Position numbers and translations under genes: made by a program. A DNA stretch of 64,000 nucleotides, taken from a phage. The stretch is from NCBI GenBank assembly GCA_014437165.1, contig GCA_014437165.1_4090.3; one strand, written 5' to 3'. Of the stretch, positions 9,113 through 36,884 are shown piece after piece; the stretch's first letter is position 1, and each line of letters opens with the position of its first letter. Under the pieces are notes generated by a model. That model was given only the letters and a program-made list of their open reading frames with translations. It was not told where the DNA came from and made no database searches.

Positions 9113-9850
9113 TTATACTGAATTGTTAGGATAATATCTCCCATTTCCCCATATTATTCGCACAGCACCACCACCAGCAGCCGTATAAGAAGAATTATCC
9201 CATATACTACCACCACCACCATACATCTTACCAGCACCACCACTACCAGCACCACCATTATATGAACCACCGTAGCTACCACCAATACCATTAGCACCTT
9301 GAACAATGATACCAGTACCACCACCCGTACCAATGAACGAGGTATTATAGAATGTACCACCGCCCCCGCCGCCGCCAGCACCATTTTCACCAGTGATTGC
9401 ATCTCCGTTACCACCTTTACCTGTGTAGCCACCAGCACCACCACCAATGACTGCACCACCACTTACACCAGTATTGCCACCATTACCACCACCATCATTA
9501 ATAGCGTTAGCAGCTTTTCCACCTAGTCCACCAACCGTATATGCACCAGTGAAGCTAACACATAGTTTTTCAGTTCCACGATATAAACCGTTTTCAACTG
9601 GTGTAGTAGTGTTGGTATGCGTAAGAGAAACACTTAAGTACTCACCACTAGTAACCGGAATATTATTACGCCACGATAAGCCGCCGCCAGCACCACGTTG
9701 ACCACCCGGCGAAATAACACATACTGATATTTCGGTAACGCCAGCAGGAACTGTAAATTGTGTTGTTCCTATTGTCGTGATTAATTGTTCACCATGTGGC
9801 TTATATTCAATTTCATTCCCGTACTTAATCATTCTTCCAAAAGGTAACAT
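9113..9850 (-). CDS. glycine-rich (GGxGG / GxGGxG repeat) protein carrying the same N-terminal MLPFGRMIKYGN tag
   Basis: 245-aa ORF; N-terminal ~60 aa non-repetitive, rest Gly/Ser/Thr/Asn-rich; same SD/terminator module as RCC1 paralogs. Confidence 0.75.
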   Translation of the reverse strand: MLPFGRMIKYGNEIEYKPHGEQLITTIGTTQFTVPAGVTEISVCVISPGGQRGAGGGLSWRNNIPVTSGEYLSVSLTHTNTTTPVENGLYRGTEKLCVSFTGAYTVGGLGGKAANAINDGGGNGGNTGVSGGAVIGGGAGGYTGKGGNGDAITGENGAGGGGGGGTFYNTSFIGTGGGTGIIVQGANGIGGSYGGSYNGGAGSGGAGKMYGGGGSIWDNSSYTAAGGGAVRIIWGNGRYYPNNSV

Positions 9851-9897
9851 AATTCCCTCCTTTATTCATTATAATATATTTAATACAAAAAGAAAAG

Positions 9898-9916
9898 CCA
9901 GTACTGAGTACTGGCT
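9898..9916 (-). terminator. intrinsic terminator GCCAGTACTCAGTACTGGC + T-run
   Basis: hairpin + TTTTCTTTTTG on minus strand. Confidence 0.7.
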
Positions 9917-9922
9917 ATTATA

Positions 9923-11110
9923 TTATAATTGTCGGGGTGTATCTAGTACATATCTAGTTGTACTAGGACCACCATCATCATAAGTTCCGGTTGAATATAT
10001 ATTTTTCATATCAGTTAGAAATGTACGATATGAACCTCTATATATTTTTATTTTATCATACATAGAATATGTTATTTGTGTAGGCATTGGACATGCAGTA
10101 AACTTACCAACAGTTGCACTAGTACCAATACCCAATGAACCAGCATAACTACTGGCATTTAAACCAGTTGCATATACACCAGTACTCGTAATTAGTATAC
10201 TAGATTGTGGTGGGTATCCAGTATGAATTGAATACAAAGTACCGGGTGGTAACGTCGTACTGTTATTTCCTAAAACTCCATTAACAGAGCTAGATGTAGT
10301 GTTATTTCCCCATGCCCCATTATTAGCTAACCCACCGACAAGGAACTGACGTGCTCCTGTATTTGGATTTTCAACTAAAGCACTTACTGCACCAGTTGAG
10401 CATCCTGTGTATTGTAACGTTTTTGTGTATGTTGTATTTGGTTGATATAAAGTATATTGATTATATGAAGTCCATGTAGTCGCGGAACTTATACCGGATG
10501 TAACACCACCAATATATAAATTATTTTGTTTATCAAACAACAATACACAGTTATTTGTTGACTGTATTTGTGCAATATCAACATTAGGTGTGACCGCTTT
10601 TACAAATGAACCATCGGTTATTTCATAAGTAGTTCCCGTTCCATCGGCGAATTGTCTAGCACTGTTCCACCCTGTACTCCATATTGTATTATTGTCCATT
10701 AAGAAAGTAAACCACGTAGTACCTCCATACATCTGTTTAATTGAAGTACTTGAACTTTGTGTGTACAAATTTTGAATATATTGGTTATAACTTAAAAACG
10801 TAGTAGTACTAGTTGATAAACCAATATGACTACCATATCCACAGTAATAATAATTTGAGTCATTGTCTTTTACTAATAAAGTTCCTTGTGTAAGCCAGCA
10901 ATCGTTAACGTTTTCTCTAATTAATGTCCATGATTTTAATGCAGTGTTGTTTCCTCTACCGAATTTCCCAAAACTATTATTCCCACGTGCATATAGTTGA
11001 CCATCCGTATACAGAACCACAACATCTAAATCAGTTGGGATTATTTTCTTAATTTGAAGTGGTACTGGGGCAATATTCCCATAATTCATCATTCTTGCAA
11101 AAGGTAACAT
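9923..11110 (-). CDS. RCC1-like beta-propeller paralog with N-terminal MLPFARMMNYGNI tag
   Basis: 395-aa ORF; blades such as LYARGNNSFGKFGRGNN. Confidence 0.8.
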   Translation of the reverse strand: MLPFARMMNYGNIAPVPLQIKKIIPTDLDVVVLYTDGQLYARGNNSFGKFGRGNNTALKSWTLIRENVNDCWLTQGTLLVKDNDSNYYYCGYGSHIGLSTSTTTFLSYNQYIQNLYTQSSSTSIKQMYGGTTWFTFLMDNNTIWSTGWNSARQFADGTGTTYEITDGSFVKAVTPNVDIAQIQSTNNCVLLFDKQNNLYIGGVTSGISSATTWTSYNQYTLYQPNTTYTKTLQYTGCSTGAVSALVENPNTGARQFLVGGLANNGAWGNNTTSSSVNGVLGNNSTTLPPGTLYSIHTGYPPQSSILITSTGVYATGLNASSYAGSLGIGTSATVGKFTACPMPTQITYSMYDKIKIYRGSYRTFLTDMKNIYSTGTYDDGGPSTTRYVLDTPRQL

Positions 11111-11157
11111 AAATTCCTCCTTTATTCATTATACTATATTTAATACAAATAAGAAAG

Positions 11158-11176
11158 CCAGTACAGAGTACTGGCA
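11158..11176 (-). terminator. intrinsic terminator GCCAGTACTCTGTACTGGC + T-run
   Basis: hairpin + T-run on minus strand. Confidence 0.7.
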
Positions 11177-11181
11177 TTAAA

Positions 11182-12330
11182 TCATTGTATAAATGACATA
11201 TCAACTTCTGTATAACTAAGAATGTTTTGTCCAGCAATTCCCCCCATTACTACCATAGCATACCCACAATAATATAATTGCTCAGTGTCCGTAAGTATAA
11301 GTGAACCAGATGGAGTGCGTACCAAATTACACGAACTATTAAACGAAGTATACGAAGGAGTATATGAGTACTGATTAATATTATTACCAACACCTAATTG
11401 ACCAAATCCATTCGACCCAGATGCGTATAGAACTTCATCACCTTTAGCTATATGTGATGCCATGTTACTAACACAAGTATATAGAGTATAAACTCCTGAA
11501 CTCAATAATGTCGGAGTTTTGTATTGTATATCGGTAGATGAAGAAGTACCACCTGTGCCAAATTCGTTCCCGTATTGTGCACCGAACTGTTTACCACAAG
11601 CGTACAAATTATTATCCGATTTAATAAAAAATGTACTTTGATAACTTACATCAAAATCTATAACATCCGAAGCAATCATCGTCACCCCAGTAATAGAAGT
11701 TTGATTACCTGTACCTAACTGATAGTAATAGTTAAAACCACAACCCCATAAAGTATTATCTTCTTTTAGGTATATGTTACCAACTGCCTTTTTAACCGAA
11801 GTTATAGTATCTACCCTTTTGAATGTGTTAAAAGAATTAATGTTTGTACCATCACCAAATGATGATAGGTTCGAGTTATTGTTAACTCCACAACAATACA
11901 ACGTACCATCGTTTGTTATCAAATTCACCTTCATATCATTAAAACTACTCATGTATTTTATATCAGAAACATTAATACCACCTGATGTTATCCACGTAGT
12001 ACAGTCCGTCCACAAAGTTTTTGTATCAGTTACACCAGTGAATGCCTTCGTGTTACCAGTGATAAAAACTTTTCCAGTACCTTTCTCTTCATACAATTGA
12101 CAACTACTACTGTTATCTTCCAATAGAACTCGTTTAACATTCTCTGCACAAAGAATAAATTTACTCGATGCTACACCTGTACCAGTACCCCAATTCGTCG
12201 CAGAAGATGCATACAACTTATTAGTATAAGTATCATGAAGATACATAGAATCACTTGAATATATTTTAAAACGCCTATCCTTACCAGGGGCAATATTCCC
12301 ATAATTCATCATTCTTACAAAAGGTAACAT
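11182..12330 (-). CDS. RCC1-like beta-propeller paralog with N-terminal MLPFVRMMNYGNI tag
   Basis: 382-aa ORF; canonical blade YASGSNGFGQLGVGNN. Confidence 0.8.
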   Translation of the reverse strand: MLPFVRMMNYGNIAPGKDRRFKIYSSDSMYLHDTYTNKLYASSATNWGTGTGVASSKFILCAENVKRVLLEDNSSSCQLYEEKGTGKVFITGNTKAFTGVTDTKTLWTDCTTWITSGGINVSDIKYMSSFNDMKVNLITNDGTLYCCGVNNNSNLSSFGDGTNINSFNTFKRVDTITSVKKAVGNIYLKEDNTLWGCGFNYYYQLGTGNQTSITGVTMIASDVIDFDVSYQSTFFIKSDNNLYACGKQFGAQYGNEFGTGGTSSSTDIQYKTPTLLSSGVYTLYTCVSNMASHIAKGDEVLYASGSNGFGQLGVGNNINQYSYTPSYTSFNSSCNLVRTPSGSLILTDTEQLYYCGYAMVVMGGIAGQNILSYTEVDMSFIQ

Positions 12331-12375
12331 ATTTCCCTCCTTTATTCATTATACTATATTTAATACAAAAAAGAA

Positions 12376-12398
12376 TGCCAGTATCAAGTACTGGCATA
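12376..12398 (-). terminator. intrinsic terminator ATGCCAGTACTTGATACTGGCAT + T-run
   Basis: hairpin + TTCTTTTTTG on minus strand. Confidence 0.7.
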
Positions 12399-12401
12399 TA
12401 T

Positions 12402-13571
12402 TTAAACTGGTGAATCTAATACAAATTCTAAGCTACTAACGCCACCATATGTGACATTTGTCCCCGTGCTATATACAAAATTACCATCAGTTATATAAGT
12501 TCGGTTATACCCACCTGCCATCTGCGACTTACTATAATCAAACCCATCAGGCACGATTGCTTTGGTATATACCAATGCATTGGTAGATGTACCAATACCT
12601 AACATACCAGCTTCTGAAGATTGATTGTAGCCGCAACAATATATACCATCTGTTGTAGCAATAACTTGGTTATAATATGAAGTATTGTTAGCAATGCTTA
12701 CTACATCACCGGGTGGCATTAGTGAAGCAGTTTGAACCTCAAATGCTCTATAATCATTGAGAGAACCATTTGTCCCATCTGCTTGTGCACCAAATATTCT
12801 CGAACCGCCATTTGCGATGATGGTTTTTCCATTTGGATCAGTACCAATTGCCATTGCCATTGAAGTACCATTCTCCGTGTAGTACTTGATATTAATTGTA
12901 TTTCTTAAGCTGGTAGGAGCACCATAATATATAGTATATAACTTACTTCCTGAACTTGTAACTGCATTTACTCTTCCTGTATAAAATAGCCATCCTTGGT
13001 TTGTAACATAACCGTGCATTAAATTACTTGCAAACAATTTAACAGGTAATTGATTTGCTGCGGTCGGAACAGTACTTTTGACGAATTTACCAGCAATATT
13101 GTTAGTTGTTGTCCCATCACCCAACTGACCATCTGACCCCACTCCAGTACTCCATATTGTTTGGTCTGACAGTAACACACTTGTAGTCTGATAACTAACT
13201 GCTATATCTAATATTGGTAATGTTAATGTATCGAATGTTGGCATAGCAGAAGTCCATATTGATACTGCTGCCCCTTTCATACCAACAGTTGTTGAACTTC
13301 CACTGTACCATATTTCATCATTGCTTTTCTTAAGAACTATCGTCGTGGCTCCCATCCAAAAATCTTGAACACCAGAAGTACTATAAGTCCATGTAGTAAC
13401 AGTATTTTTGTGACCTAAACCCAAAAGACCATTTGCATTCTCACCACGCACATATAAATCACCACTGTTTGTTAAAACAGCAACATTATAGTTGTTAGCA
13501 AGTATTTTTTTAATATTTGGTTTAGCAGGGGCAATATTCCCATAATTCATCATTCTTCCAAAAGGTAACAT
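12402..13571 (-). CDS. RCC1-like beta-propeller paralog with N-terminal MLPFGRMMNYGNI tag
   Basis: start at 13571 (Met55 of track ORF) is the one preceded by GGAGG and giving the tag; upstream extension runs through the terminator. Confidence 0.8.
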   Translation of the reverse strand: MLPFGRMMNYGNIAPAKPNIKKILANNYNVAVLTNSGDLYVRGENANGLLGLGHKNTVTTWTYSTSGVQDFWMGATTIVLKKSNDEIWYSGSSTTVGMKGAAVSIWTSAMPTFDTLTLPILDIAVSYQTTSVLLSDQTIWSTGVGSDGQLGDGTTTNNIAGKFVKSTVPTAANQLPVKLFASNLMHGYVTNQGWLFYTGRVNAVTSSGSKLYTIYYGAPTSLRNTINIKYYTENGTSMAMAIGTDPNGKTIIANGGSRIFGAQADGTNGSLNDYRAFEVQTASLMPPGDVVSIANNTSYYNQVIATTDGIYCCGYNQSSEAGMLGIGTSTNALVYTKAIVPDGFDYSKSQMAGGYNRTYITDGNFVYSTGTNVTYGGVSSLEFVLDSPV

Positions 13572-13615
13572 ATTCCCTCCTTTATTTGTTATACTATATT
13601 TAATACAAAAAAGAA

Positions 13616-13638
13616 TGCCAGTATCAAGTACTGGCATT
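13616..13638 (-). terminator. intrinsic terminator, identical to 12376-12398
   Basis: identical hairpin + T-run. Confidence 0.7.
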
Positions 13639-13641
13639 ATG

Positions 13642-14751
13642 TTATTTTGGTAAATCAATTTTAGTAAAGACTGCAACATCCTCGATTGCACCTGGAATGG
13701 CGTAATACGATCCAGTACTATACACATCTCCATTTTTGGTTAATATCGATGTCAAACCATCACTAAAAAGAACATCCCTAATCTCACTAACTTCAACGGG
13801 TAATTGTAAATTGGTAGCACTATATATAGCACCAGTTTGAGAATTGTTTAATCCCAAACCACGGTTCGCCCCAACACCCTTCTGATATGTACTAGTAATT
13901 ACCATTTGTGTAGCAGTATTTAAGGCAGGTGAATTCGTCATAAACAACGGAGAACTATTAGGCAAAGTACTTAAAGGAACTGCACGGAATGTAGTCGTAC
14001 CTGAACTAAGAAAGTTTGGAGTTTGACCACATACGAAATATGATGTACCATTATAGTAATTTAATGCATTACCACCAATGGCTGCATCGATTACACCAGA
14101 ACTACGCAATCCCCAAGTGTTAATTTGTGTTTGGTTCCCCGTACCATGCTGCCCACTACTATTCCATCCAGAACTATATAGCTTATTATCTAATGTAAGA
14201 TACATACTATCATTCGCATTGGTCATTACTTTACGAACGTTCGTAGCACATTGAGTTAATGTGTAAATTGATGATGAACCAATACCCAAAGAACCACGAT
14301 ATCCATTATCTCCTGCACCATAGAGTACTGAATTAGTGCTAAGTACAAATATTAAACCATTTGTACATACAATATTAGCAATTTCACTTACTGGTATAGC
14401 ATTGGTAAACCAATTAGTTCTTTCAACTAATACAGTACTGTAAGAAGTAGTTGTAGAAGATGAGAACCAGTACGTTTGACCTGATGTCCATATCGTATTA
14501 TCATTTTTAATAATAACAAGTGTACGATCACCCACGAAAAAATTAGAAACATCTGCACTTACTAATATCCATGAAGATACCGTGTTGGTATTACCATTTC
14601 CAGATTCACCACCTTGATTTCTACCTATGTAATATAAATCATGTGAATCAGTCAATAAGAATTGGCCTTGGGTAGAAGCACCAACTTTAATTATTTTTTT
14701 AGGACCAGGGACAATATTTCCATACCTAATTATTCTTCCAAAAGGTAACAT
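13642..14751 (-). CDS. RCC1-like beta-propeller paralog with N-terminal MLPFGRIIRYGNI tag
   Basis: start at 14751 (Met8 of track ORF) with GGAGG SD; 8-nt gap to upstream gene (coupled). Confidence 0.8.
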   Translation of the reverse strand: MLPFGRIIRYGNIVPGPKKIIKVGASTQGQFLLTDSHDLYYIGRNQGGESGNGNTNTVSSWILVSADVSNFFVGDRTLVIIKNDNTIWTSGQTYWFSSSTTTSYSTVLVERTNWFTNAIPVSEIANIVCTNGLIFVLSTNSVLYGAGDNGYRGSLGIGSSSIYTLTQCATNVRKVMTNANDSMYLTLDNKLYSSGWNSSGQHGTGNQTQINTWGLRSSGVIDAAIGGNALNYYNGTSYFVCGQTPNFLSSGTTTFRAVPLSTLPNSSPLFMTNSPALNTATQMVITSTYQKGVGANRGLGLNNSQTGAIYSATNLQLPVEVSEIRDVLFSDGLTSILTKNGDVYSTGSYYAIPGAIEDVAVFTKIDLPK

Positions 14752-14759
14752 ATTCCCTC

Positions 14760-15962
14760 CTATTGTTGCCATAACTGCGTTGGCATTAATGTTAGTGTAG
14801 TAATACTATAAGTGCCATCTGGCAATCTACCACCATTTCCATTCCAGCCACCACATGCATATAATTTATAATCTTTAGTAATTATTATGGTTCTGCTCCA
14901 ATCTTTAGATGCCATAAGAACATTGTCATAACCACCACTTATTGCACTAAGATTAAAAATATTCCAAGTTCTAACTAATGTATTAGTTCCATTACCTTCT
15001 TGACCATATGAGTTAGCACCACTACTTCTAACATATGGTGCGTATTGTGCCATAGGTGCACCAATTGATGCATTTCCCATATTACTTGGACAAATAAAAG
15101 TACTGTACTTACTTACATCAACCGTGACCGATGTGTTCCTAATTGGTGTTAGCTGATTTACCGATGTAGTCGTACCATTACCAGCTTGTCCATTACTGTT
15201 AGCCCCGCTATAATATACAGACCCACCAGTAGTAAACCACCAAGTAACATCGTATGTAGTACTAATATGTTCGACATCACTCATCACATATTTGTTCAAA
15301 TATATCATAGAACTAGCACCACAACCACTTTCACCGAAGTTATCCTTACCACAAAACCATGCCTTTTTATTTGATTTAATATAGTGCGTTCCTTGTAATG
15401 AACATGCCATATGTGTAACTTCACCCATATTAGTCATAACTGTTAGTGTGGGTATGGAATTTTGATTACCAGACCCACATTCACCATTGGTATTTCTTCC
15501 ACACGCAATTACTCTACCATCGGTTAATAATATTCTAGTACTTTCACCTATATATACACTCTTGATCATATTAGCCATAACACCAATTTTATTAAATGCA
15601 ACAGTAACATCAGTCCATGTTGTCAAAAAACCATTAACAGGTGTTGCATCTCCATAATCAGAAAATGCACCAACCGATCCAGTGTAGTATATTTTATTAT
15701 CCAAATCAATCATCAATGAACCTTGAACACCAAGCCAAAAGGCTGCACAGTTCCTTGCAAGTACTGTAAATGACGAAACTGCTGCTGAATTCCCAAGACC
15801 AAATTGATAAAAGTTATTACTACCATAACCATATAAAGTATTAGTTGGGTTATGTAGATACATACAGTTTGTATAATGTTGTTGTAAAACATCTGAGAAC
15901 TCTACAGGTTCTGGACCTGGTGCAATATTTGCGTACTTAATCATTCTTCCAAAAGGTAACAT
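14760..15962 (-). CDS. RCC1-like beta-propeller paralog with N-terminal MLPFGRMIKYANI tag; first gene of the minus-strand array
   Basis: 400-aa ORF; SD GGAGGG upstream. Confidence 0.8.
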   Translation of the reverse strand: MLPFGRMIKYANIAPGPEPVEFSDVLQQHYTNCMYLHNPTNTLYGYGSNNFYQFGLGNSAAVSSFTVLARNCAAFWLGVQGSLMIDLDNKIYYTGSVGAFSDYGDATPVNGFLTTWTDVTVAFNKIGVMANMIKSVYIGESTRILLTDGRVIACGRNTNGECGSGNQNSIPTLTVMTNMGEVTHMACSLQGTHYIKSNKKAWFCGKDNFGESGCGASSMIYLNKYVMSDVEHISTTYDVTWWFTTGGSVYYSGANSNGQAGNGTTTSVNQLTPIRNTSVTVDVSKYSTFICPSNMGNASIGAPMAQYAPYVRSSGANSYGQEGNGTNTLVRTWNIFNLSAISGGYDNVLMASKDWSRTIIITKDYKLYACGGWNGNGGRLPDGTYSITTLTLMPTQLWQQ

Positions 15963-33200: not shown

Positions 33201-33514
33201 AAATAATTGAAAAAGGGATTGACTCCGGTCAGTCCCTTTGCTATTATATACGCATAGAAACAAATCAGCCCACAGGGTGCATAAATGTATCTATTGTTTG
33301 CTGGTGGCTAGTACTGAAAACTATTTTTAAAAAGTACTTGCATTGTACTTAGAATCAAGTATAATATTTTACATCAGGACGGGGAACGAAACAAGTAACC
33401 CCGTTAAGTAGTCCAGGAGTAAGACATAAGAAAACCTCCCCTGATAAAATAGTTTGACAATAGAAAGTAAACGAGTATAATACTTACATCAACCACTGAT
33501 AAGGAAACATTAAA

Positions 33515-33790: not shown

Positions 33791-33851
33791 GTATTGACAA
33801 AGTATCTTAGTACTGTATAATAGTTTACATCTTAATTAAAAAGGAAACATC

Positions 33852-35220: not shown

Positions 35221-35475
35221 ATGATTAAGGTACAACTATCTAAAGATAATATCTTGCGGGTACACTATAAAGCACCACAGAGAATCATCACAAAGGCCGT
35301 ACAGCTTGCTAATGAGTTTATTAATGGTAACCTATTACCAAGGAAGTTAAGCAACGGAAAACTGCGTGTAATCGATGTAGACACTAACAACAGAATAGTA
35401 ATTGAGAACACAGGAAAGATAAACCTATATGAACACCAACAATATAATAAGAAAATAAAACTAATATCACGTTGA
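35221..35475 (+). CDS. hypothetical protein (84 aa)
   Basis: SD AGGATAAA. Confidence 0.55.
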   Translation: MIKVQLSKDNILRVHYKAPQRIITKAVQLANEFINGNLLPRKLSNGKLRVIDVDTNNRIVIENTGKINLYEHQQYNKKIKLISR

Positions 35476-35528
35476 CAGTACTCAATTGTTTTAGTATTAT
35501 GTACACATACCAACACGGGAGAAACAAA

Positions 35529-35747: not shown

Positions 35748-35804
35748 TTGACAGTACTCAAATGTTTTAGTACTATATGTACATACCAACACGGGGAAAA
35801 CAAA

Positions 35805-36047
35805 ATGATTACTTTAGAAAAACGTATCAAAGAAACTACATCGCTGGTGGAACTGTTAACAGTACTGAAATGCCGTACTACTCGGTTTAGTACACCGGAC
35901 TTTATTAATATGGTTGATGTTAACGGTCGTTATCGCATTGCAGTAGAACAAGGAACAGCGAAAGTATTCAGTACTAAAAACACTAAGGAAGTGATTCACG
36001 CTGTAAGTGTTAAAAAAGTAGTTGCCATTGATAGTAAAGTACTGTAA
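35805..36047 (+). CDS. hypothetical protein; paralog of 35529-35747
   Basis: duplicated promoter TTGACAGTACTCAAtTGTTTTAGTA-TAT…. Confidence 0.55.
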   Translation: MITLEKRIKETTSLVELLTVLKCRTTRFSTPDFINMVDVNGRYRIAVEQGTAKVFSTKNTKEVIHAVSVKKVVAIDSKVL

Positions 36048-36078
36048 GATAGTTTCATTAACTCAAGGAGAACATGCA

Positions 36079-36663
36079 ATGCGTAATTATACTAAATTCA
36101 TCCGTACCCTGTCAGAAATGGAAACCAACAAAGAGATCCTTTCAGCTTGTCGGTTAGCTGGTCTGGAGATCATCGGTGCGGGTTCTTCCCGTATTGTATT
36201 CGCTTTAAATGATCGGTTAGTGATCAAGGTCGCGAATTGTGATGCGGGTGTAGAACAAAATGAAACTGAATGTAAGGTATGGAATTTTTTAGATTATGAC
36301 CGCCCTCAATTGAAACAGTACTTTGCAAAGGTGCATATGCATTTATGCGATCCTGATAATATGTTTATCGTTATGGATCGGTTGAGTACTGCAAGTAAAG
36401 GCAGTGTAAAGCACGTAAACGCGTGCAATGAATTAAAGTACAATATTAAACGTAATGCCATTGAACGCCAGCACCGCTTTGCTGATGCACTACAACACGT
36501 TGATGATACATTATCAACACTAACGATAAGAGATATCAGAAAACAGAATATCGGCCAGGATCGTAATGGCCTTATTAAAGTACTTGATTACGGTTTAACC
36601 CGCAATATCTGGAATCAGTACTATAAAAAGCGTGATGTAGAAGCAAGTAAGGTAACACGATAA
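36079..36663 (+). CDS. minimal protein-kinase-like protein
   Basis: G-loop IGAGSSRIVF, LVIKVA lysine, catalytic-loop-like IRDIRKQNIG, DFG-like KVLDYG; SD AAGGAGA. Confidence 0.6.
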   Translation: MRNYTKFIRTLSEMETNKEILSACRLAGLEIIGAGSSRIVFALNDRLVIKVANCDAGVEQNETECKVWNFLDYDRPQLKQYFAKVHMHLCDPDNMFIVMDRLSTASKGSVKHVNACNELKYNIKRNAIERQHRFADALQHVDDTLSTLTIRDIRKQNIGQDRNGLIKVLDYGLTRNIWNQYYKKRDVEASKVTR

Positions 36664-36884
36664 AAAAGATTAAAAAAGGGATTGACTCCGGTCAGTCCCT
36701 TTGCTATTATATATTCATTGAGAGATAACTCACTGACCCATAGGGTGCGGAAGTGTATCTATTATATAAGTATTCAGTACTGAAAACTATTTGATAAAAA
36801 GTACTTGCATTGTACTTAGAATCAAGTATAATGTTTTACATAGAGAGGGGGAAATGGTTCTCCCTGGTAATAAGGAATAAAATC

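Follow-up and report, generated by a model that had tools for sequence, protein, structure and literature searches.

The gene and its surroundings

The window (the whole 64,000-nucleotide stretch that was analysed) carries an intact ORF for a kinase-like protein of 194 residues, lying exactly where the sequence-only reading had placed it. The features of the locus are as follows.

35221..35475, + strand: ParE-like toxin-domain gene, 84 aa, two genes upstream of the kinase gene (PF24732, E=6e-11)
35472..35500, + strand: similar, near-consensus sigma70-like promoter, upstream of the small genes and the kinase gene
35748..35776, + strand: sigma70-like promoter TTGACA-17-TACTAT, the nearest strong one upstream of the kinase gene; putative in function
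35805..36047, + strand: 80-aa gene immediately upstream of the kinase gene, 31-nt gap; no Pfam match
36065..36071, + strand: Shine-Dalgarno sequence AAGGAGA, 7-nt spacer to the kinase-gene ATG, read from the sequence
36079..36663, + strand: CDS of the 194-aa minimal protein-kinase-like protein, from the ORF list and the sequence
36675..36712, + strand: hairpin with a 12-bp stem, 12 nt past the kinase stop; exact 38-nt repeat of 33212-33249

Read directly, the ORF runs for 585 nt from ATG 36079 to the stop codon at 36661-36663. The longest mechanical ORF starts at TTG 36022, not at ATG 36079. The ATG is taken as the start because all homologs and all annotated orthologs begin there (585 nt).

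The region is 92–98.5% identical to the Asteriusvirus jumbo coliphages of about 350 kb (G17, Sharanji, phAPEC6, PBECO4, 121Q). The kinase-like gene is full-length in 36 of 36 matching records and 100% identical in G17 and Sharanji. Pairwise dN/dS values among six orthologs fall between 0.03 and 0.18, which shows that the ORF is a real gene under purifying selection. Its orthologs include Sharanji gp063 (WNN14351.1), WAE76904.1 of ph0011, and 121Q gp308. Public records already name a kinase: the ortholog is a “protein kinase domain-containing protein” in ph0011, “serine/threonine-protein kinase PRP4” in fEgEco12, “PknA” in Turkey3, and “serine/threonine-protein kinase” in Turkey5, and the PBECO4 entry (UniProt L7TKF0) bears a similar label. 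The kinase call for this gene is thus not new. A literature search on the family, which corresponds to PHROG 4301, found no functional study and no biochemical data, and phages lie outside the coverage of the PKL-discovery preprint. Within the window, neither a paralog of the kinase-like family nor a T7K-like gene was found.

The surroundings are dense in promoters. The window holds 17 perfect TTGACA-N16-18-TATAAT sites against 0.19 expected; 16 are on the plus strand, and all lie between 16,012 and 39,155. Several perfect promoters have identical spacers (TTGACAAAGTATCTTAGTACTGTATAAT, at 33794, 33990 and 34258), suggesting that promoter cassettes have been duplicated ahead of tiny genes. The promoter at 35748 probably drives both the 80-aa gene and the kinase gene, and these two genes are probably co-transcribed. 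The hairpin beyond the kinase stop overlaps a promoter-like site, TTGACT-17-TATTAT, and likely marks the end of one transcription unit and the start of the next. In the 38-nt repeat AAAGGGATTGACTCCGGTCAGTCCCTTTGCTATTATAT (33212-33249 and 36675-36712), the hairpin holds the −35-like TTGACT and the −10-like TATTAT follows. The repeat may be a combined terminator and promoter, or a regulator site, at transcription-unit boundaries.

In vB_Ec-M-J the kinase gene lies inside an annotated direct terminal repeat of 21,525 bp. In Turkey5 the surrounding 45 kb hold about 120 small genes, all pointing the same way; apart from this kinase, a function is annotated there only for a TraR/DksA protein, an acetyltransferase, and a transcriptional regulator. 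Early expression from host sigma70 promoters is well supported as a prediction from the DNA itself; in the CBB paper, the early status of the equivalent block was inferred from promoters alone. A literature search found no transcriptome.

In divergent relatives a ParE-like gene also precedes the kinase gene, adjacent at one locus (L174) and 2.4 kb away at another (L175). The linkage may reflect plain synteny or a functional pair. The 80-aa upstream gene was considered as the equivalent of the ParE-like partner seen at L174 and was rejected, the ParE-like gene of the present locus sitting further upstream.

Two further observations concern the window at large. The palindrome AGTACT is its commonest hexamer, with 265 copies where base composition predicts about 22, and is densest between 16000 and 40000. 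It often lies within the extended palindrome CAGTACTG and makes up part of the promoter spacer, AGTACTGTATAAT being present 11 times on the plus strand; it is found inside coding sequence too, four times in the kinase gene. The palindrome may serve as a regulator site or have to do with modification or restriction; a literature search returned nothing on it. At 4346-15962 on the minus strand, some 10 paralogous ORFs of 245–443 aa, with pairwise identities of 26–40%, stand in an array. These paralogs are unusually rich in Ser/Thr/Tyr (26%), and a Sharanji ortholog, gp114, is annotated as an RCC1-repeat protein.

Kinase fold and catalytic residues

As a single sequence, the protein matches Pfam Pkinase (PF00069) at E=0.0024 and 17.8 bits, below the gathering score of 31.7, and PK_Tyr_Ser-Thr (PF07714) at 16.7 bits, short of the threshold of 23.1. 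Its best single-sequence match in the PDB is MKK4 (phmmer, E=0.012). These weak statistics, and an AF2 model from 14 sequences that was poor in its C-terminal half (pLDDT 53.8), would fit a chance resemblance of kinase motifs in an unrelated small-protein fold. That explanation is most improbable, being refuted by the conservation seen in 122 homologs, by the confident model that they yield, and by the kinase folds that the model retrieves. A 14-sequence family profile matches PDB entries at E values of 1.6e-4 to 1e-3 (MKK4, 1.6e-4; MKK7, 5e-4), with alignments to MKK4 and MKK7 that span the Gly-loop through the DFG motif. The sequence-profile matches are to protein kinases (MKK4/7, PKC, Akt), not to APH or choline kinases. 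Taken together, the profile matches, the catalytic conservation, and the model establish that the resemblance to kinases exceeds chance.

Attempts at a curated family assignment failed. Pfam gives the sub-threshold Pkinase match only, NCBIfam has no model for the family, and PADLOC returns only weak matches to PD-T4-6 kinases. Just 6 of 58 diverse family members match Pkinase at E≤0.01. PHROG 4301, labelled “unknown function”, matches residues 3-187 at E=1e-41.

The four motifs that had been picked out from the sequence alone are all present and in the order described: I32-GAGSSRIVF-41; L47-VIKVA-52, with K50; I150-RDIRKQNIG-159, with D152 and N157; and K167-VLDYG-172, with D170. Missing from that list was E64, the candidate αC Glu in Q60-N-E-T-E64, which is present and invariant. 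The catalytic elements map as follows.

36175..36192, + strand: Gly-rich loop G33-A-G35-S-S-R38, family signature GxGSSR (A3 and A1 alignments)
36226..36228, + strand: Lys50, the β3 ATP-anchoring lysine (VIK50VA), invariant in 122 sequences
36268..36270, + strand: Glu64, candidate αC Glu in the motif G57..Q60-N61-E-x-E64, invariant together with Q60
36529..36549, + strand: catalytic loop R151-D152-I-R-K-Q-N157, equivalent of HRDxxxxN, aligned to HRDIKPSN of MKK4
36586..36594, + strand: DFG equivalent D170-Y171-G172, with D170 and G172 invariant in A1 and A3

In the broad alignment A3 (122 homologs, 19–95% identity), L29, S36, R38, K50, Q60, E64, G159, D170 and G172 are invariant, and conservation is 90% or more at G35, V48, A52, G57, N61 and D152. 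In the close set A1, G33, G35 and D152 are invariant. Of the PKL catalytic constellation, then, K50, E64 and D170 are retained without exception and D152 in at least 90% of the sequences; N157 is nearly invariant in the close subfamily only. Loss of the Lys and Asp motifs in orthologs, which the sequence-only reading had named as evidence that would tell against a kinase, is not what the homologs display. Lys50 aligns with the region of the VAIK Lys of MKK7, and Glu64, which lies within the predicted helix 55-73, would pair with it. The spacing of 13 between N157 and D170 equals the canonical spacing from catalytic Asn to DFG Asp by PKA numbering. There are departures from the canonical pattern: R38 replaces the third Gly of GxGxxG, and the catalytic loop has no HRD His and a variable HRD Arg (RDIRKQN versus IDISKTN).

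AF2 run on the 122-sequence alignment gives a model with pLDDT 94.9 and pTM 0.90. Two N-terminal helices (4-12 and 17-26) lead into a five-stranded N-lobe, with strands at 30-35, 38-42, 47-52 and 96-100, the αC helix at 55-73, and a further helix at 76-81. A hinge follows, then αD and αE (109-120 and 130-145), the catalytic loop, a β-hairpin (158-160 and 166-168), D170-Y-G, and a short C-terminal helix (175-182). The predicted model thus has the bilobal PKL arrangement of a five-stranded N-lobe with αC, a hinge, and a helical C-lobe core. Fold searches with the model return essentially only kinase-like folds. Against the PDB, the top Foldseek match is Legionella Lpg2603 (E=2.8e-4, TMq 0.45), followed by APH(2''), MEK1, RIOK2 and SAICAR synthetase; the fold is therefore kinase-like, yet no solved family is close. 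Structure prediction had been proposed as a check on the suggestion of a stripped-down eukaryotic-like kinase, and its outcome, together with the profiles and the conservation, bears that suggestion out. It is almost certain that the 194-aa protein has a PKL fold.

A truncated C-lobe in a large phage family

The protein ends 24 residues past D170, and the AF2 model places a single helix after the DFG-like motif. The activation segment, the APE motif, and αF–αI (subdomains VIII–XI) are all absent, so that the protein falls short of a complete Hanks domain. In their place stand only the helix and a basic tail with a pI of 10.2:

36601..36660, + strand: C-terminal helix (residues 175-182, with a conserved aromatic W/Y..YY motif) and basic tail (AF2 secondary structure)

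This truncation is a trait of the whole family. Among 103 single-domain homologs, the median number of residues after the DFG-equivalent Asp is 23. The repeated unit of tandem-fusion proteins is likewise about 200–230 aa, and in fusions to GNAT domains the C-terminal end still falls at the aromatic “YY” motif of the family.

The extreme truncation invites the question of whether the fold has been put to another use. A kinase fold without phosphotransfer might, as a nucleotide-binding pseudokinase or scaffold, tie up a host factor, or might carry out another chemistry such as the AMPylation of SelO or the glutamylation of SidJ. Consistent with such a role are the loss of most of the C-lobe, Arg38 in place of the third Gly, the invariant Q60 and N61 at the start of αC, which have no canonical counterpart, the missing HRD His and variable HRD Arg, and the identity of the top PDB match, Lpg2603, as an atypical effector kinase. 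However, pseudokinases typically lose at least one of the Lys, the catalytic Asp and the DFG Asp, and here all three persist in over 100 sequences, with identities as low as about 20%. This retention argues for catalysis at the kinase site. Alternative chemistries are inseparable from phosphotransfer by sequence. On this evidence a role outside phosphotransfer appears unlikely.

The family is very large, uncurated, and restricted to phages. An exhaustive profile search recovers 2,072 clusters at 50% identity with E≤1e-3, of which 244 remain at E≤1e-10; a word-indexed search gives 916 clusters at 90% identity (E≤1e-5), almost none with a Pfam domain. Members reside on viral contigs of about 10–370 kb and, among named phages, in Klebsiella phage RaK2, Pectobacterium phage CBB (two copies) and Ralstonia phage RP12. 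A scan of 185,579 species-representative cellular genomes found no member of the close subfamily.

Some distant members are parts of larger proteins; apart from the L105 fusion, the very long ones are taken as predicted proteins from the protein database. In two of them (P0216 and P0258) the kinase-like unit is C-terminal to a GNAT acetyltransferase, and in another (P0130) it lies inside a tape-measure protein of 3,248 aa. Two to four tandem copies occur in single polypeptides (P0021, P0023 and P0027). In two further proteins (L105 and P0121) the partner is a complete enzyme of the CCA-adding/PolyA_pol type, to which P0121 adds a 2H phosphoesterase. The L105 fusion (L105:7386-10382) is a 999-aa ORF that is stop-free under table 11.

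A survey of neighbouring genes covered 80 viral loci, representing 33 independent lineages and including the IMG/VR loci of distant members (L090-L169). A gene for PolyA_pol, Rnl1, Rnl2 or 2H lies within 8 kb in 12 of the 33 lineages, and one for AAA_33 (a PNK-like P-loop kinase) occurs in 8, at a median gap of 546 bp; both are raw counts without a baseline, so that enrichment of RNA-repair neighbours is unproven. Other genes also recur beside distant members. An SNF2 helicase is found in 7 lineages (median gap 243 bp, again a raw count without a baseline), and DNA polymerase B and a DUF7487/TnsA-like endonuclease are seen repeatedly.

These associations bear on the acceptor. The protein may use its kinase fold to transfer phosphate to something other than a protein, be it a hydroxyl of RNA or tRNA, a nucleotide, or a small molecule; for such a substrate the missing peptide-docking lobe would be irrelevant. 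Small enzymes of this kind exist: ArkI is an archaeal tRNA kinase of 216 aa, and the APH and MTR kinases use small-molecule acceptors. Several observations weigh against a non-protein acceptor, which we consider possible but doubtful. Apart from the want of a baseline, the loci with RNA-repair neighbours are just 22–29% identical to the 194-aa query. Closer relatives (34–52% identity) lie in blocks of tiny ORFs like the present one, without RNA-repair genes, and the window is free of tRNAs and, around the kinase locus, of RNA-repair genes; the RNA-repair link is thus confined to a distant branch. In addition, the profiles point to MKK4/7, PKC and Akt rather than to APH or choline kinases, the His of the APH/CAK motif HxDxxxxN and the C-terminal substrate-binding helices are absent, and the GNAT and tape-measure fusions do not indicate RNA.

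A broader proposal builds on the fusions to a CCA-adding enzyme and a 2H phosphoesterase and on the adjacency of PNK-like, Rnl1 and Rnl2 genes. In it, an unnamed, phage-restricted family of ultra-minimal kinases had an ancestral role in RNA repair or RNA-targeting defence, and the Asteriusvirus copy is an early-expressed anti-RNA-defence derivative. Such a family, of about 200 aa with the signature GxGSSR / K / G..QN..E / D / DxG, would be mechanistically distinct from T7K and would phosphorylate, for example, either tRNA or RNA ends or the nucleases and repair enzymes with which the host attacks or mends such ends. We regard this proposal as rather unlikely.

Proposed activity and comparison with known kinases

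Judged by its conserved residues, the protein is probably an active phosphotransferase; whether its substrate is a protein seems an evenly balanced matter. The reading that we favour, at a confidence about midway between doubt and acceptance, is that of a constitutively active, minimal PKL phosphotransferase that is made early and acts on host or phage proteins. ATP-Mg would bind between the lobes, with Lys50 and Glu64 holding the α and β phosphates, Asn157 and Asp170 holding the metal ion or ions, and Asp152 acting as the base for the substrate hydroxyl. Since the activation segment, the APE motif and αF–αI are missing, activation-loop phosphorylation cannot control the enzyme and a canonical peptide-docking platform is lacking; activity would then be constitutive, and the acceptor site open and perhaps of loose specificity. 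Host sigma70 promoters within the terminal-repeat region of the jumbo genome would drive early synthesis, and the enzyme most likely phosphorylates Ser, Thr or Tyr in host (or phage) proteins, in the service of takeover or counter-defence after the manner of T7 gp0.7.

Interest in phage kinases has grown with the demonstration that T7K disarms bacterial defences through mass phosphorylation. The gene-level kinase claim being public, what is added here is confirmation rather than discovery, with delimitation of a family that is modelled in no curated database and its separation from T7K. The resulting family-level picture comprises the extreme C-lobe truncation, the distinctness from T7K and, more suggestively, the links to RNA repair and GNAT domains; the fusions of distant members to such enzymes are testable leads to substrates. 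If active, the protein would rank with the smallest kinase domains in which every catalytic residue is kept. It would then be of use in defining the minimum kinase core, in learning how an enzyme that lacks an activation segment and an αF–αG platform selects its substrates, and in asking whether phages deploy several kinases with different targets.

Compared with Hanks-type kinases (MKK4/MKK7, PknB, YabT), the protein has a sub-threshold Pfam score, lacks subdomains VIII–XI and the HRD His, carries Arg for the third P-loop Gly, and is about 194 aa long against a domain of about 260 aa. With the effector kinases Legionella Lpg2603, Salmonella SteC and HopBF1 it shares a small, divergent kinase fold, and SteC is among the weak profile matches; however, similarity is low, no family relationship is evident, and those effectors act in eukaryotic hosts. 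HopBF1, described as a “minimal kinase fold”, is not among the top matches listed. There are no sequence-level matches to APH(2'') or ArkI, and the RNA-repair context is absent at the locus of this phage. The protein also falls outside the APH/choline-kinase (CAK) class, having neither the HxDxxxxN His nor the C-terminal helical substrate-binding subdomain.

The closest functional analogue is T7K, which experiments have proven to be a protein kinase and which has a part in anti-defence (PMC13645617). Both proteins have N-terminal helices, an N-lobe, and a minimal C-lobe, the chain ending some 20–30 residues past the DFG-equivalent Asp, and both have D-x4-N and an N-to-D spacing of 13 (D-x4-N-x12-D). 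The motifs are all in register in hhalign, and Foldseek matches T7-type kinases at E values near 1e-5 and TMq of 0.52–0.56. In contrast, the T7K family has a DPV/DP-type motif instead of DFG (PMC13645617), at 213-215 in T7K itself, where the present protein has DYG/DFG with an invariant Gly; the Gly-loop is GxGSSR here and GNGHFS in T7K, and the present protein has no shutoff or DNA-binding domain. Unlike phages with hyperpromiscuous T7K, this one shows no depletion of Ser/Thr/Tyr in its early proteins (17.6% in the early block against 18.8% in the next, p=0.32). Homology to T7 gp0.7 was rejected on hhalign probabilities of 0.2% for the single sequence and 0.9% (P=0.06) for the family profile. 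Membership of the T7K family by PHROG was likewise rejected, the protein belonging to 4301 and having no match to the T7K groups 2828/15752/18305. Given the shared architecture and the lack of significant sequence similarity, T7K is an analogue and not a family mate.

Distant T7K homologues have been reported in jumbo phage G17 (Nature 2026, PMC13645617). The gene so reported is not the one at 36079-36663; it is of the type of Sharanji gp144, which lies outside the window:

OR545507.1 66182-66856 (L171:21183-21857), − strand: Sharanji gp144, second Asteriusvirus mini-kinase, by T7K-profile match

This protein of 224 aa has an ITDPL motif, ends 20 residues past it, and is without a shutoff domain. 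It matches the T7K profile at E=7.6e-21 and the HMM of the PHROG 4301-type family at 6 bits only. Asteriusviruses thus carry two distinct mini-kinases, unrelated in sequence: gp144, which belongs with T7K, and the product of the present gene.
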